From the NCBI GenBank assembly GCA_002771515.1, contig PCTL01000001.1:7995-71994 (forward strand): a DNA stretch of 64,000 bases, written 5' to 3'. The notes under the pieces are model-generated. The model was not told the origin of the DNA. It worked only from the letters and a program-made list of their open reading frames with translations, and made no database searches. Made by a program: the position numbers and the translations under genes. This document shows positions 36,306-48,132 of the stretch, piece after piece. Numbering within the stretch: the first letter of the stretch is position 1; the number at the start of each line of letters is the position of its first letter. The DNA comes from Candidatus Lloydbacteria bacterium CG22_combo_CG10-13_8_21_14_all_47_15. GTDB taxonomy: Bacteria > Patescibacteriota > Minisyncoccia > Phycocordibacterales > 21-14-all-47-15.

Positions 36306-39300
36306 ATGAGTAAATATAAGTTTACAAAAGCGATTGCTGGTTTTGTTGGTTTGGCAACAGCGGTTGTGATGATGGGTGGTGCGTATGTACTGCCGGTCAG
36401 CGCGGCAACTGTTGAAGAGCTGACAGTCCAGATCAATCAATTGCTCGGCCTCATTGCGCAATTGCAAGCACAACTTGCAACGGTACAAGGTGGCGGGGCA
36501 GGAACAGGAGTGTCACATACTTTCTCTGTTAACTTGAGTTTAGGTGACAGTGGCAACGATGTCATGATGCTTCAGAAAGTATTGAACTCCGACTCGGCAA
36601 CGCAACTTGCTTCAAGTGGTGTTGGCTCGCCGGGGAACGAGTCCCAGTACTTTGGTCCTATTACCAAAGCTGCGGTCATCAAATTCCAGGACAAATACGC
36701 ATCTGAGGTTTTGTTCCCGCTCGGGCTTTCAAAAGGTACCGGCTATGTCGGTGCTTCAACCCGCGCTAAATTGAACAGCATGAGTTCTGCTCCGGTGGCT
36801 GGCGTTCCGACCGTTCCGACGGTTCCGGTGGTTGGCGCTCCGGCAACAGGTGTGAACATCTCGCTTGCGGCTAGCCAGCCGTCTGCGACGCTTGCTCCGC
36901 AGAACGCGACGCGCTTGCCGTTCACGAACATTACATTTATCGGCGGTCCGACCGACACGACAATCAACGGCATAACGATTGAACGGACAGGCCTTGCAAA
37001 TGATGCGGCGTTCTCAGGCATTATCCTTTTGGATTCAGTCGGCACGCAGTTGGGTATTGCAAAAACATTGAACTCAAACCACCAGGCAACAATCGGCGAC
37101 CCGTTTGTGGTGCCGGCAGGCCAGGCGGTGACTATGACGATTGCGGGTAACATGGCTGCTGACCTCTCAAGTTACACAGGTCAGATCGCGAGCCTCTCGG
37201 TTGTAGGTGTAAACACCTCGGCAACGGTTTCTGGCTCGCTTCCACTTACGGGTACCAGCCATACTCTGAATAGCTCGCTATCAATCGGTACCGTGACGAT
37301 GAATGTCGGCGCGACCGACCCGGGCGCTTCAAACACGAAAGAAATCGGCACAGACGGATACACTTTCTCGTCAGTCAAAGTAACAGCCGGCTCAAATGAG
37401 AAAGTTCGCATCAAGTCTATCCGCTGGAACCAGTCTGGCTCTGCGACAAAGGACGATATTGCGAACATCAAAACGCACATCAACGGCTCTTCGTATGATG
37501 TGGTTGTTTCATCGGACGGCAAGTACTACACCTCACACTTTGGTGACGGTATAGTGATTGACAAGGGCTCTTCAATTGACATCTCAATTAAGGGCGACAT
37601 CGTTAGTGGCTCTTCGCGAACTGTTGACTTTGATGTCTACAAGCGAACAGACCTCTACATGACAGGTGAGACATTTGGCTATGGTATTAATCCGCCGAAT
37701 GGCACTGACACATCAGGAACTGACGACGGCGCATTCCATCAGAACACGAACCCATGGTATGACGCATACCAGGCGACTGTTTCTTCAGGAAGCTTGACGG
37801 TAGAGAACGCGACGACAGTCGGCGCGCAAAACATTGCTATTAACACGGCAAATCAGCCGATTGGTGGCGTGAATGTGGAAGTGAAAGGCGAATCGGTTTC
37901 TGTCGCGCAGATTATCTTCAATCTGATGGCGACGGGAGACGAAGCTGAAAACATCACAAACATTACGCTTGTTGACGGGAACGGCACGATAGTGGCGGGT
38001 CCGGTAGACGGCGCTTCGGGTGCTACAAACTCCGCATGGGGTACTGTAACCTTCACCGATACGGTGACATTCCCTGTTGGGAAAGGCACTTACACTTTGA
38101 AGGGTAAGCTTGGCACTGCCTTTGTTTCAAACGACACTGTTCAGGCGTCAACAACGCCGGGTAGCCAGTGGACAACGGTCACAGGCCAGTCAACGGGTGA
38201 CTCAATAACACCGACTCCGTCTTCAGCAATTACCGGCAGTACAATGACCGTGAAGGCGCCGACCATTACGATGAGTGTGCTTTCTACTCCGCTTGCGCAG
38301 ACGATTGTTGCCGGCGGTTCGGTTAACTTCTCAAAGTATCAGTTTGATGCTTCGCAGTCAGGTGACGACATTAGGTTCAACACGGTGAAACTTGCGTACG
38401 AAACATTCGCGGGTACACCGACAAACTTGACGAACTGCGGTCTCTACGATGGCGCAACTGCTCTGATGAGTGGCTCAAACCTCGTGAACCCGACGGCAAG
38501 TGGCTCTTCAACGACATTTACCTTTGATTCAGGACTTGTGGTCTCCAAGGGTACGGTGAAGACATTGAACTTGAACTGCAACACTTCAGCGACTACAACG
38601 ACTGACAAGTTCCGATGGGGTATTGCGGCGCACGCAAGTGCTGCGCAGACCGCGACTGGCGTACAGTCCGGTCAGTCCATTGACAGCTCTACGGCAAATA
38701 CCAGCGGTATTATCGTGAACGCGGGCGTTGGCCAGCTTATCACGACTGCAACCGGCGGTTCATACACGGTTACCGACGATTCAACGCCGGGTTACCGTAT
38801 CGTATCACCGGGCGACTCCGTGGAACTCTTGAAGCTTAAATTCACTGCTTCAAACGAAGACATTGATATTCGGCGCGTGGCGTTTGAGCTTTCAAACACT
38901 GCCTCAAACACGCCGCTTGACTTGGTAGGAAACCAGATTACTCTCTGGAACAGTGGAGTACAGGTTGGTACGGCGACATTCGTCAACGATGGCGACTTCG
39001 CAACATCAACCATCTTTGCTGACGGAGCATTCCGTGTACCGCGCGGCGAGTCAAAGACAATGACTGTTAAAGGTACGATTGCAAGCATTTCAGGCACCGT
39101 CGGTCCGCTGACGGCATCTGGAGATTTGTTCATCGTTTCCTACGATGGTGATGACAATAATTCTGCGTCACCGGTAGCGGGCGGTAACTATGGTACCGGG
39201 GTATCGGGAGGTACGGCTATAAACACCGGCACAACCGGCAATGTTACACCGCAAGGTGTTCGTATCTTCAACGCATACCCGACATTGGCGAAGCTTGCTG

Positions 39301-45939: not shown

Positions 45940-48132
45940 ATGGTAAGAAACATGTCCCAGAATACAATCAATACGGCGCTGCGATGGATTATTCTTACCG
46001 GTATTTTTATTATCCCGTTCGTTCCGCTAATTGTTTCGCCGTCAATGTTTTTCCCGTTTATCACGGGAAAGAATTTTACTTTTCGTATTTTGGTTGAAAT
46101 CGTCTTTGCCGTGTGGCTCGTCTTGATGTACCGAGACGCATCGTATCGTCCTAAGTTTTCATGGATGTTTGCCGCGATTGCCGGATTCATCGGCGTTATG
46201 ACTTTTGCAGACCTCTTTGGTGAGAATCCGATCAAGAGTATCTGGAGTAACTTTGAGCGGATGGAAGGGCTCGTGGCGCTTTTGCATCTTGGCGCGTACG
46301 CGATTGTCGCCGGTACTACGCTGCGTACAGAGTATCTCTGGGGCGTGTTCGCGCATACTTCTCTCGGCGCTAGCTTGATTGTTGGCTCCTACGCGGCGCT
46401 TCAGCTTGTGGGCTCGGTCGCCACTCACCAAGGGAGTCGTTTAGATGCGACACTTGGCAACGCGTCGTATCTTGCCGTATATATGCTCTTCCACATTTTC
46501 ATCGCGGCATTTCTCTGGGCGCGGCAGGCGGAGCGTCCGTGGGCAAAATGGGTATACGCGCCGATTATTCTTTTTGAAACATTTATCCTATACCACACCG
46601 CGACGCGCGGTACGATTCTCGGGCTTCTCGGTGGGACGCTTGTCGCCGCGTTGCTTGTTTCTATATTCGGCAGAGACACTCCGCGTGTACGGAAAATCGC
46701 AGTCGGTTTTATTGCGGCCGTTGTTCTTATTGTCGGGAGTTTTCTCGCGGTTAAAGATGCGCAATTTGTGAAAGACAGTCCGGTTCTCTCCCGTTTCGCG
46801 TCAATTTCTCTTGAGGAGCGTACTACTCAATCGCGCTTCATAATCTGGGGTATGGCGTTTGAAGGATTCAAAGAACACCCGATACTCGGTTGGGGACAGG
46901 AGAATTTCAATATCGTATTCAATAAATTTTTCAAGCCGGTGCTCTATAAGCAGGAGCCGTGGTTTGACCGCGCGCACAATGTATTCTTAGATTGGCTTAC
47001 AGCCGGCGGCGCTTTGGGTCTTCTATCGTATCTGTCACTTTTCGGAGCCGCTCTTTGGGTTATCTGGCGAGTCGGCGCGTTGTCAGTTGTTGAGCGAAGC
47101 ATATTGACGGGACTTTTGGCGGCATATTTTGCACACAATTTCTTTGTCTTTGATAACATAGTGAGCTATATTCTCTTCTTCTCGTTTCTCGGGTATATGA
47201 CATCTGTTGGGCATCGTGTGCGCGCCGCGGAGACGGATGCCACCATTATTGAGCCACCGTCTCATGTTGCTTCTTCAATTGTCGCGAGTATCGTCATAGC
47301 CTCGCTTATGTTTAGCATCTACTTCATCAATATCCGCGGCGTGCTCGCGGCTCAGACACTGCTTCGCGCAATCTCGCAACAGGAGACGGTAGACGGTAAC
47401 TTTGCACTGTTTAAAAAAGCGACTTCGTACCATTACGCGACCCAAGAGGTCCGCGAACAACTGCTCCGTTTCGCGTCTGATGTTGGCAGAGCAAATATCC
47501 CGCAGGAGACAAAAAATGAAATTTTAACCTACGCTGTTAATGAAATGGCAAAACAAATTCAAATACAGCCAAACGATACGCGCTTGCTCCTTTTTTATGG
47601 TTCGTTTATGGACCAGCTCGGCCAGCGTGAACAGGCGATTGAATTGCTGACGGAAGCGCGTCGGACATCGCCTGGGAAACAGCTCGTGTGGATTGGATTA
47701 GGTAACACATATCTAAATCAAGGAGATTACGAAACGATGATTGAAGTATTCCGCGAAGGATATGAACTGGAAACCACGAACCAACGGATGCATCTTGCAT
47801 ATGCTATTGGTGCGATTTATGCAGACCGGCGTGATATTGAGAAAGAGCTTTTGACCGAAGATTTTGAGACATATTATATCTGGCGGGACGCGGTTGTTAA
47901 TGCCTACGCTTCACAAAAACGCTTTCCTGAACTTGTCGCGATCTGGGAGAAGCGGGTGTCGGCGCAACCTGATAACGCGCAGTATAATCTCTCTCTTGGC
48001 GCGGCTTACGCGCAGAACGGTGAATTCCGAAAGGCGATAGGGCAGATACAGAAAACGATTGAGCTGAATCCGGATTTCAAAGAGACCGGAGAGTATTATA
48101 TCAGCGAACTGCGTGCCGGAAGATTGCCATAA
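45940..48132 (+). CDS. O-antigen ligase-like (Wzy_C/PglL-type) polytopic membrane protein fused to C-terminal TPR repeats
   Basis: About 12 TM helices with a large periplasmic loop, as in the WaaL/PglL/Wzy_C family. The C-terminal roughly 170 aa are TPR-like (…LGNTYLNQGDYETMIEVFREGYELE…, …LSLGAAYAQNGEFRKAIGQIQKTIELNP). An alternative start is ATG 45952. Confidence 0.7.
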   Translation: MVRNMSQNTINTALRWIILTGIFIIPFVPLIVSPSMFFPFITGKNFTFRILVEIVFAVWLVLMYRDASYRPKFSWMFAAIAGFIGVMTFADLFGENPIKSIWSNFERMEGLVALLHLGAYAIVAGTTLRTEYLWGVFAHTSLGASLIVGSYAALQLVGSVATHQGSRLDATLGNASYLAVYMLFHIFIAAFLWARQAERPWAKWVYAPIILFETFILYHTATRGTILGLLGGTLVAALLVSIFGRDTPRVRKIAVGFIAAVVLIVGSFLAVKDAQFVKDSPVLSRFASISLEERTTQSRFIIWGMAFEGFKEHPILGWGQENFNIVFNKFFKPVLYKQEPWFDRAHNVFLDWLTAGGALGLLSYLSLFGAALWVIWRVGALSVVERSILTGLLAAYFAHNFFVFDNIVSYILFFSFLGYMTSVGHRVRAAETDATIIEPPSHVASSIVASIVIASLMFSIYFINIRGVLAAQTLLRAISQQETVDGNFALFKKATSYHYATQEVREQLLRFASDVGRANIPQETKNEILTYAVNEMAKQIQIQPNDTRLLLFYGSFMDQLGQREQAIELLTEARRTSPGKQLVWIGLGNTYLNQGDYETMIEVFREGYELETTNQRMHLAYAIGAIYADRRDIEKELLTEDFETYYIWRDAVVNAYASQKRFPELVAIWEKRVSAQPDNAQYNLSLGAAYAQNGEFRKAIGQIQKTIELNPDFKETGEYYISELRAGRLP

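Follow-up and report, generated by a model that had tools for sequence, protein, structure and literature searches.

The surface-protein region of the Candidatus Lloydbacteria (Parcubacteria/CPR) contig is best read as two conserved Parcubacteria modules standing side by side in one Lloydbacteria lineage, with a variable slot between them, and not as one cluster. Module A, which sequence comparison indicates to be widely conserved in Parcubacteria, comprises a winged-HTH protein, a long leader, the envelope protein 1, a TM-anchored TPR protein and a 50-aa TM peptide. Module B, as delimited by gene order, consists of the gene for protein 5, a Wzy_C–TPR enzyme, followed by murB and secA. The enzyme would be a conserved ligase that transfers glycans en bloc. 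This explanation, the two modules and the ligase taken jointly, is held with middling confidence. All five consecutive plus-strand ORFs (proteins 1 to 5) that an earlier note had listed are real and their coordinates are exact; the list lacked a sixth, conserved ORF of 50 aa, and two of its start codons were wrong. The window referred to below is the whole 64-kb stretch of DNA analysed.

Protein 5 (45940..48132, plus strand, 730 aa) is, as had been proposed, a Wzy_C-family protein fused to TPR repeats: Wzy_C is matched at 71.8 bits (threshold 31.7) and TPRs are present at the C-terminus. The AlphaFold model (pLDDT 88.9, pTM 0.83) has a WaaL-like fold, with a Foldseek match to 7tpg_B (E 6e-5, target TM-score 0.67). 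The catalytic residues of WaaL/PglL, on which the earlier note had made its assignment depend, are present: R223, R299 and H346 are unchanged in all 40 homologues compared and align with R215, R288 and H338 of E. coli WaaL, residues that are reported to be essential in WaaL and to be conserved also in PglL (PMC3643930). This residue mapping rests on hhalign colinearity together with the fold match, the hhalign alignment to E. coli WaaL itself having a low probability (3.5%, E 0.012). Thirteen TM helices are predicted. The predicted extracytoplasmic catalytic loop (aa 272–351) holds R299 and H346, with R223 at the start of TM8, and the TPR domain (aa 484–725) is predicted to face outwards beside this loop. 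In an N-in model, the short loops contain eight K+R residues inside versus four outside, which would place both the 272–351 loop and the TPR domain outside. The PglL_A motif (PF15864) has no Pfam match in the protein.

Relatives of the enzyme are numerous, contrary to the suggestion that the fusion is uncommon: 5,437 proteins are matched at E ≤ 1e-5, and at least 593 GTDB species have one. The best 120 of these 5,437 matches are 710–791 aa long, most of them about 720–740 aa, and nearly all are full-length. Gene neighbourhoods were surveyed in 80 species, with 60 loci counted upstream and 45 downstream. In 41 of 45 loci, secA follows on the same strand no more than 5 kb downstream; murB is found downstream in 26 of 45 and, if the locus has secA as well, stands between it and the enzyme gene. 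The window has the same order, with MurB at 48464..49510 and SecA at 50016..52514 (both plus strand, identified by Pfam). Glycan genes occur within 10 kb upstream in 52/60 loci, as against 1/45 downstream, and a flippase lies within 3.5 kb in half of the loci (30/60). The enzymes are 40–55% identical while the neighbouring islands differ, being ABC-dependent (L005), Wzx-dependent (L007, L009) or of GtrA/UbiA type (L010); a constant enzyme beside differing islands is consistent with a ligase that is promiscuous for the glycan but has a fixed acceptor. An initiating phosphoglycosyltransferase was not seen in the islands inspected, and the 64-kb window yielded neither a glycosyltransferase nor a flippase gene. 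Pfam matches to LPS or lipid A genes were absent from the window proteins scanned; CPR bacteria are generally considered to be devoid of LPS.

The enzyme may be pictured as a housekeeping transferase of the WaaL/PglL superfamily. On the outward side of the membrane it would take a finished glycan from undecaprenyl-pyrophosphate, with R223 and R299 holding the pyrophosphate and H346 taking part in catalysis, as in WaaL, and would move this glycan en bloc to an acceptor that is conserved throughout Parcubacteria. The strain-variable island directly upstream, with its flippase (Wzx or a PglK/MsbA-like ABC type), would supply the glycan in most species. Recruitment of the acceptor would fall to the outward TPR domain; this acceptor is most likely an envelope protein O-glycosylated in the manner of WsfB substrates, and the T/P-rich linker of protein 1 and the pilins are candidates. 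We infer the donor and the acceptor, as well as any connection with the giants nearby, and protein O-glycosylation is plausible. The TPR domain is compatible with a protein acceptor but is no proof of one, as TPRs scaffold polysaccharide export too, and the constant neighbour murB could indicate a cell-wall-related acceptor instead.

The closest parallel by reported architecture is the S-layer O-oligosaccharyltransferase WsfB of Paenibacillus alvei, a Wzy_C membrane domain with C-terminal TPRs, an arrangement also reported for PglL (PMC2943079). The hosts of WsfB and of WsaB (Geobacillus stearothermophilus) have no outer membrane, as is probable for Lloydbacteria too, and the WsfB-type gene, like the Parcubacteria one, lies in or beside a variable glycan cluster. 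Such a cluster can hold an Asn-synthase homologue and a CDP-glycerol glycerophosphotransferase (PMC2943079), and similar genes are found in L007 and L008. In the WsaB system, a separate small TPR protein, WsaA, accompanies the S-layer gene and parallels protein 2. Unlike WsfB, the Parcubacteria enzyme is present in at least hundreds of species, is tied to murB/secA and is usually away from the S-layer-like gene. The PglL/TfpO/PilO O-oligosaccharyltransferases of Gram-negative bacteria share the Wzy_C domain, and R224, R298 and H349 of N. meningitidis PglL correspond to R223, R299 and H346; a PglL-like relaxed glycan specificity would account for conservation of the enzyme beside variable islands. 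In contrast to that group, the Parcubacteria enzyme has neither PglL_A nor an adjoining pilin gene and, unlike PglL hosts, Lloydbacteria probably lack an outer membrane and a Gram-negative-type periplasm.

A possible, though doubtful, alternative is a TacL/WaaL-like ligase acting on a non-protein acceptor, which would pass an Und-PP polymer to a membrane glycolipid or a peptidoglycan-associated acceptor and make a secondary cell-wall polymer, its TPR domain docking to wall-synthesis or export machinery. TacL of Streptococcus pneumoniae, a lipoteichoic acid ligase that uses an Und-PP-linked polymer from a shared pathway, is likewise a Wzy_C enzyme of a bacterium without an outer membrane (PMC5727136). 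In structure the enzyme matches the glycolipid ligase WaaL best: its core helices are aligned with those of 7TPG and 7TPJ, the catalytic loop stands before TM10, and the essential residues are kept at an identity of 14–18%. The position of the gene just 5′ of murB points the same way, as do teichoic-acid-like genes in some upstream islands (TagF-like Glyphos_transf in 5/60, cytidylyltransferase in 11/60). However, TacL (397 aa, with a glycolipid acceptor) and WaaL, at about 400 aa (PMC5727136), are too small to include so large a TPR domain; compared with WaaL, the Parcubacteria enzyme has one more TM helix, the 13th, and an outward TPR domain of 250 aa. Furthermore, the documented Wzy_C–TPR precedents are protein O-oligosaccharyltransferases (PMC2943079), and murB and secA may adjoin the gene through a frozen housekeeping order, with no functional link.

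Protein 1 (36306..39950, plus strand, 1214 aa), the main component of module A, has a Sec-type signal peptide (…VLPVSA|A, read by eye) followed by a helix, a PG-binding module, a disordered T/P-rich linker (aa 161–180) and Ig-like β domains. The PG_binding_1 match is just below threshold (22.1 versus 23 bits); PF01471 is found in many homologues, which are named ‘peptidoglycan-binding protein’. Ser and Thr make up 24.6% of the protein, as against 10.7% in the housekeeping proteins of the window, and the AlphaFold model is all-β from mature residue 149 to the end. The signal peptide, PG-binding-like module and Ser/Thr-rich β region described earlier are thus confirmed, but the supposed repeats are not: self-BLAST of the β region yielded no sequence repeats at E ≤ 10, and the region is a chain of diverged Ig-like domains. 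At E ≤ 1e-5 there are 1147 homologues, the best 120 of which are 46–81% identical and nearly all full-length. Protein 1 is probably a wall-anchored, S-layer-like envelope protein. In three Paceibacteria, genes for PG-binding-domain proteins as a class are among the most strongly expressed of those with unknown function (PMC10936435). Two PMT-family GT-C enzymes and four GT4 genes flank the orthologue in L011, independent evidence tying the protein 1 family to glycosylation; PMT genes lie there between the orthologue and the TPR gene.

Module A is kept as a separate block in L012, L094, L095 and L096, usually a few genes 5′ of rplJ-rplL and away from the enzyme gene. Its 271-aa winged-HTH protein (34612..35427, plus strand; weak HTH_DeoR match, E 0.0067, aa 205–252) has a C-terminal motif, SEKT[LI]QR.L..LV..GV..K.G.RRWS.Y, in common with the upstream genes of these four loci; conserved directly 5′ of the protein 1 family, it is a candidate regulator. 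The 878-bp plus-strand leader or promoter region that follows (35428..36305) contains no convincing ORF, and an Rfam search of it gave no match. Similar gaps of 640–790 bp precede the protein 1 orthologues in the same loci, and GC falls to 0.41 in the 34–36 kb stretch that includes the leader. An intrinsic terminator (39997..40029, plus strand; 15-pair stem with 8 GC, then a T run) lies 3′ of protein 1. Protein 2 (40062..40922, plus strand, 286 aa, TPR Pfam matches) is the TPR protein that had been described, anchored by an N-terminal TM segment, with its start corrected to ATG 40062; the rejected TTG at 39978 overlaps the terminator. Its homologue follows the protein 1 orthologue in L001, L003, L012, L094, L095 and L096. 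The single-TM 50-aa peptide (41034..41186, plus strand) is, judging by the motif F.KF.[LF]GF..I.A common to 46–48 aa ORFs in L001, L003, L094 and L095, the third member of the conserved module.

The earlier note had proposed one surface/host-interaction locus, in which a dedicated O-oligosaccharyltransferase is encoded together with its substrates, the Ser/Thr-rich giants and nearby pilins. This is unlikely and already weakened by synteny. The Ser/Thr content and disordered linker of protein 1 are in its favour, as are the order kept in three Lloydbacteria-type contigs (the window, L001 and L003/L013), the LTD-containing genes that adjoin the enzyme gene again in L022, L050 and L088, and the report that 21 of 31 PglL-family genes adjoin a pilin substrate (PMC3643930). 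However, the neighbours constant across the 80 species are murB/secA and the glycan islands; a full-length protein 1 homologue lies upstream in just one of the 60 loci from other species, and neither a pilin gene nor a full-length protein 1 gene was found beside the enzyme in the remaining 59. Genome CAZMLK01 has the protein 1 and enzyme genes on separate contigs (L045 and L095), and module A normally has its rplJ-rplL site. The strong terminator after protein 1 and a 538-bp gap directly 5′ of the enzyme gene indicate that they do not form one operon. Nor is the enzyme next to the type IV pilus cluster: this ends at 28545, leaving 7.8 kb to protein 1 and 17 kb to the Wzy_C gene, and ligA, recA and ftsK intervene.

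A Wzy-type polymerase, which would polymerise Und-PP repeat units flipped by an adjacent Wzx without ligating them to an acceptor, is very improbable: some Wzy polymerases do match Pfam Wzy_C, a divergent Wzx lies within 500 bp in 15/60 loci and inspection of the L007 and L009 islands showed no further polytopic protein that could be a Wzy, but Wzy polymerases are typically poorly conserved and co-vary with the repeat unit, whereas this protein keeps its 40–55% identity beside unrelated islands, including ABC-transporter-dependent ones that need no Wzy, retains the Arg/Arg/His set of WaaL and is kept in the Lloydbacteria lineage with no upstream island and no glycan genes in the window.

The slot between the two modules is variable and contains a small TM protein and a PLC-like/LTD/β-helix giant. 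Protein 3 (41212..41706, plus strand, 164 aa, start corrected to ATG 41212) has only a faint DUF4878 match and varies between genomes; by eye, no similarity is evident to the proteins at the same position in L001 and L003. Protein 4 (41685..45401, plus strand, 1238 aa; the database entry begins at Met8 and has 1231 aa) consists of a signal/anchor, a PLC/S1-P1-like Zn-site domain (about aa 20–330), an acidic Pro/Glu linker, an LTD (about aa 633–731) and a right-handed β-helix. Of the three parts named earlier, the β-helix is matched above threshold and the LTD is upheld through its presence in homologues, the match here being slightly sub-threshold (30.1–33.8 versus 34.3 bits). The PLC assignment is marginal, with no Pfam match even at E ≤ 10 and profile matches to two PLC structures (E 0.046 and 0.062) in which the metal-site motifs are aligned. 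At least 496 homologues of protein 4 are present across Parcubacteria.

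The 730-aa product of the Wzy_C–TPR gene (45940–48132, +) appears, from its sequence and a structural model, to be a genuine glycan transferase of the WaaL/PglL fold that retains its catalytic residues. Pfam family Wzy_C (PF04932), as proposed in the earlier note, matches aa 214–365 above the gathering score (71.8 versus 31.7 bits), and TPR families span aa 530–715. The curated NCBIfam ligase and polymerase models do not match the protein, and a phmmer search of the PDB with the transmembrane (TM) domain (aa 1–490) returned nothing relevant; the relationship of this domain to WaaL was recovered by structure comparison only, not by sequence search against the PDB. 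The AlphaFold model, built on 40 homologues (pLDDT 88.9, pTM 0.83), contains 13 membrane helices and, after them, a TPR solenoid (aa 484–725), and Foldseek matched it to 7tpg_B (E 6e-5, target TM-score 0.67); the predicted fold is polytopic and of the WaaL type, TM10 being preceded by a large extracytoplasmic loop. Residues R223, R285, R299, P314, G317, G319, D343, R344 and H346 are invariant in the 40 homologues. Alignment to the family profile with hhalign places R215, R288 and H338 of E. coli K-12 WaaL opposite R223, R299 and H346; its probability is low (3.5%), yet it is colinear over 304 columns and in accord with the fold match. These residues are important for WaaL function and are conserved in PglL as R224, R298 and H349 (PMC3643930). 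The catalytic residues, on whose presence the assignment had been made to depend, are thus retained. With an N-in orientation assumed as in WaaL, the short loops carry eight K+R inside and four outside, a distribution under which both the catalytic loop (272–351) and the TPR domain would be extracytoplasmic.

The fusion of Wzy_C with TPR had been called uncommon; it is very common, and within the WaaL/PglL superfamily the enzyme is ordinary and widespread. A protein search gave 5,437 matches at E ≤ 1e-5 among 8,000 candidates scored. The best 120 of the 5,437 are 710–791 aa long (most about 720–740), nearly all aligned over the full length, and 42–77% identical to the query, its own entry excepted; ‘O-antigen ligase family protein’ and ‘O-antigen ligase/TPR repeat protein’ are frequent annotations among the matches listed. 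Among GTDB species, each represented by one genome, at least 593 encoding loci were found. A search of the open-access literature returned no paper joining ‘candidate phyla radiation’ and ‘O-antigen ligase’; the architecture itself has been described before. Wzy_C is combined with a C-terminal TPR in PglL and in WsfB, the Paenibacillus alvei S-layer O-oligosaccharyltransferase, whereas in Geobacillus the TPR resides on a separate small protein, WsaA (PMC2943079). The window enzyme has the same arrangement as WsfB, with the TPR at aa 484–725. It differs from the PglL family (Schulz et al. 2013) in that the PglL_A motif (PF15864) gave no match at E ≤ 0.01 and in the absence of an adjacent pilin or target gene, the nearest pilin gene in the window ending at 28545, 17 kb away.

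The genomic surroundings identify the Wzy_C–TPR gene as a common, conserved housekeeping gene of Parcubacteria. Seven contexts with Pfam annotation gave the pattern, and 80 species-representative loci were used for tblastn counts (60 for the upstream side, 45 for the downstream side). On the same strand, secA lies within 5 kb downstream in 41 of 45 loci; murB is found within 2.5 kb downstream in 26 of 45 and, in those that also have secA, separates it from the enzyme gene. Of 26 glycan-pathway queries, one or more matched within 10 kb upstream in 52 of 60 loci, while the same queries, as a downstream control, matched in 1 of 45. A Wzx or PglK/MsbA-like ABC flippase is encoded within 3.5 kb upstream in half of the loci (30/60), and a divergent Wzx within 500 bp in 15/60. 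The upstream islands are completely different between genomes: one (locus L005) contains GT1, GT2, GT11, DegT and an ABC transporter; two (L007, L009) contain Wzx, a KpsF-like gene, methyltransferases, Asn synthase and GT8 or GT9; in another (L008) a cytidylyltransferase accompanies a TagF-like gene, and a further one (L010) contains GtrA, UbiA and a GMC oxidoreductase. Many of the loci with Parcubacteria-type Wzy_C–TPR–murB–secA blocks (among L013–L092) belong to MAGs titled ‘uncultured Candidatus Saccharibacteria bacterium’, which looks like a generic or mistaken assignment.

The earlier note had read the enzyme as an O-oligosaccharyltransferase dedicated to the adjoining Ser/Thr-rich giant proteins and the pilins. 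Its observation is largely real and its interpretation half right; for the specific claim the outcome is mostly deflationary. The consistent partners of the gene are the variable glycan island and murB/secA, as opposed to the giants or the pilins. A full-length homologue of the 1214-aa protein 1 (36306–39950) lies upstream in only 1 of 60 loci (L013, on the same contig as L003), and three other upstream matches comprise the peptidoglycan (PG)-binding module alone. Genes containing a Lamin tail domain (LTD) are found beside the enzyme gene in three loci (L022, L050, L088) and on its downstream side in two more (L043, L052). The neighbours called in the seven Pfam-annotated contexts include no pilin gene. 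In the window, Pfam detected no glycosyltransferase, flippase, sugar-nucleotide enzyme or LPS gene among the 51 proteins of at least 50 aa scanned, which cover nearly all plausible ORFs of at least 150 aa; tblastn with the glycan queries over all 64 kb found no glycan gene, the sole match being a MacB-type ABC ATPase (4743–5369). A WsfB-type cluster unites glycan genes with the S-layer gene; the window enzyme is near an S-layer-like gene without glycan genes, and in 52 of 60 other species the gene adjoins glycan genes and not an S-layer-like gene. The position beside the giants is a lineage-specific rearrangement and gives no evidence of a dedicated glycosylation system.

The arrangement of the five genes was also revised in part. 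All five + strand ORFs were found at exactly the coordinates claimed, and three proteins match database entries at 100% identity (COW88_00285, 730 aa; COW88_00260, 1214 aa; COW88_00275, 1231 aa), all ‘hypothetical protein’ of isolate CG22_combo_CG10-13_8, a metagenome-assembled Candidatus Lloydbacteria genome (Parcubacteria, CPR); the window is part of a 153-kb contig. The TTG start proposed for protein 2, a TM-anchored TPR protein, is overlapped by a terminator, and the real start is the ATG at 40062; that of protein 3 is the ATG at 41212. A 50-aa single-TM ORF at 41034–41186 had been missed. The five genes do not form a single transcription unit, because a terminator hairpin with a 15-bp stem follows protein 1 (39997–40029), a second hairpin, read directly from the sequence, follows protein 2 (40923–40965), and the Wzy_C gene begins only after a gap of 538 bp. 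The two hairpins have a common arm, AAAACCCCCAC...GTGGGGGTTTT, which could be a repeated terminator element of this genome. The TPRs of protein 2 and of the enzyme were considered as a shared specific binding module and rejected as such, the similarity being generic only (E 0.004, 37 residues).

As regards the acceptor, protein O-glycosylation is the leading reading, held at slightly below an even chance. Transfer to a non-protein acceptor by a TacL/WaaL-like ligase is a somewhat unlikely but serious competitor; TacL is a Wzy_C protein of about 400 aa, to which the window enzyme adds a TM helix and the TPR domain, and TagF-like or cytidylyltransferase genes are present in only 5–11 of 60 islands. 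Dedication of the enzyme to its neighbours, a subset of the O-glycosylation reading, is improbable. A Wzy-type polymerase is the least probable of all, since such an enzyme should co-vary with the repeat unit and serve Wzx-dependent pathways only, whereas this enzyme retains 40–55% identity although the islands next to it are unrelated, ABC-dependent in some genomes and Wzx-dependent in others. Such a pattern fits a ligase that accepts diverse glycans and has a fixed acceptor, and does not fit a repeat-unit-specific polymerase. A search for a separate Wzy polymerase found none that was polytopic among the unannotated island proteins checked in L005, L007, L008 and L009; one such protein of L010 has nine predicted TM helices.

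Protein 1 is a probable major envelope protein. It has a signal peptide, a sub-threshold PG_binding_1 match, Ig-like domains and its own terminator, and its Ser+Thr content is 24.6% against a background of 10.7%. At E ≤ 1e-5 it has 1147 homologues, several named ‘peptidoglycan-binding protein’, in Giovannoni-, Niyogi-, Harrison- and Paceibacteria; the best 120 of the 1147 are 46–81% identical and nearly all full length. As modelled by AlphaFold (pLDDT 82.9, pTM 0.44), the mature protein consists, from the N- to the C-terminus, of a helix, a helical PG-binding module, a T/P-rich disordered linker (full-length residues 161–180, SSAPVAGVPTVPTVPVVGAP) and all-beta domains. Its description as a repeat protein holds at the level of the fold only, because self-BLAST found no sequence repeats. 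Foldseek matched only generic Ig-like chains, including PrgB, integrin legs and a Nitrosopumilus S-layer protein (E 8e-10), and no specific family could be assigned by this means. In three Paceibacteria, PG-binding-domain proteins whose predicted structure is similar rank among the most strongly expressed genes without known function (PMC10936435); their membership in the protein-1 family is putative, and they serve only as a lead to its abundance.

The protein-1 block, arranged as in the window, is present in four unrelated genomes (L012, L094, L095, L096) in the order recA(-), small protein(-), ftsK(-), wHTH protein, gap, protein 1, TPR protein, variable slot and rplJ–rplL. In the slot, L094 has a PGAP1/LCAT-like protein of 785 aa, L095 a 967-aa protein and L096 an LTD protein of 1596 aa. 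The protein-1 block and the Wzy_C–TPR gene are two independent conserved blocks that have been joined in the window lineage (window, L001, L003), since they are conserved separately and lie on different contigs in genome CAZMLK01 (L095 and L045).

Several small features accompany the block. Proteins of 250–300 aa with a C-terminal winged-HTH motif, SEKT[LI]QR.L..LV..GV..K.G.RRWS.Y, are encoded at 34612–35427 and upstream in the same four genomes. This gene always precedes the giant envelope gene, with a non-coding leader of 640–880 bp between them; its product is a candidate dedicated regulator of the giant. A long 5′ region is often seen for S-layer genes. Single-TM ORFs of 46–50 aa with the motif F.KF.[LF]GF..I.A, short enough to escape annotation easily, lie shortly downstream of the TPR gene at 41034–41186 in the window and on four other contigs (L001 5319–5459, L003 5096–5236, L094 14334–14480, L095 14534–14677), two of them from distant Parcubacteria; among the four unrelated genomes, L094 and L095 encode this peptide (47–50 aa). 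Between recA and ftsK, at 31715–32065 (-), the window encodes a 116-aa protein that has a Glucodextran_B domain (E 1.5e-10) and is conserved at this place in L012, L095 and L096; the equivalently placed 115-aa gene of L094 has no Pfam match. In two unrelated genomes an IS200/IS605-type Y1 transposase directly follows the TPR partner gene (L003 4314–4997, L096 14485–15150), and the hairpin terminators there may be preferred targets of its insertion.

In a Harrisonbacteria contig (JACPTS010000001.1; L011 13733–23639), a protein-1 orthologue is followed by two PMT/PMT_2 GT-C genes (protein-mannosyltransferase-like), the TPR partner, four GT4 genes and another PMT_2. Such a neighbourhood suggests that different glycosylation machinery is linked to the same envelope protein family, and provides independent, circumstantial support for glycosylation of this family by a different enzyme class. 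A broader proposal, which we consider doubtful, is that Parcubacteria have a phylum-wide surface glycoprotein system. In it, the main envelope or S-layer protein would be the conserved PG-anchored Ig-chain protein (about 1200 aa); the near-universal Wzy_C–TPR enzyme would O-glycosylate it and perhaps pilins too, with strain-variable glycans that a hypervariable island upstream of its own gene would encode. If true, this would be the equivalent of O-antigen serotype variation in bacteria without an outer membrane, and might control how these episymbionts attach to hosts and evade phages. Attachment to hosts defines the way of life of CPR/Patescibacteria; to our knowledge, almost nothing about their cell surface is established experimentally. 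Three testable items can be named: a near-universal candidate glycan ligase, a variable glycan island that probably feeds it and a conserved four-gene module centred on the probable major envelope protein.

The LTD giant (protein 4, 41685–45401) has at least 496 homologues of about 1200–1300 aa across Parcubacteria, with LTD and beta-helix domains. PF00932 scores 30.1 to 33.8 bits in the protein itself, against a gathering score of 34.3, and is present in nearly all homologues among the matches listed. A phospholipase C (PLC) domain had been proposed as well. The N-terminal 330 aa have no Pfam match even at E ≤ 10, and a single-sequence PDB search with the N-terminus found nothing; the best PDB matches of a 12-sequence profile are phospholipases C (8cqm_A, E 0.046; 2fgn_A, E 0.062), the PLC metal-site motifs hFYDP, LGH.LH...D.....H and PYE are aligned, and two homologues among the matches listed carry PF00882 (Zn-dependent phospholipase C). 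On this evidence ‘PLC-like’ is a plausible though marginal description; the domain could equally well have an S1/P1-nuclease-like activity.

Elsewhere in the window, a complete type IV pilus cluster (17442–28545) encodes PilM, a PilO-like protein, PilB, PilT, PilC, the major pilin, the prepilin peptidase PilD and three or four minor pilins; the C-terminal region of the major pilin (24936–25436) is acidic and contains Cys. A tRNA-Ile with a UAU anticodon is located at 7032–7103 (-) (ARAGORN ‘tat’; Rfam tRNA, 71.6 bits). In most bacteria AUA is read by a lysidine-modified CAU tRNA, and a genomic UAU tRNA-Ile is unusual; it may reflect the loss of TilS in CPR bacteria.
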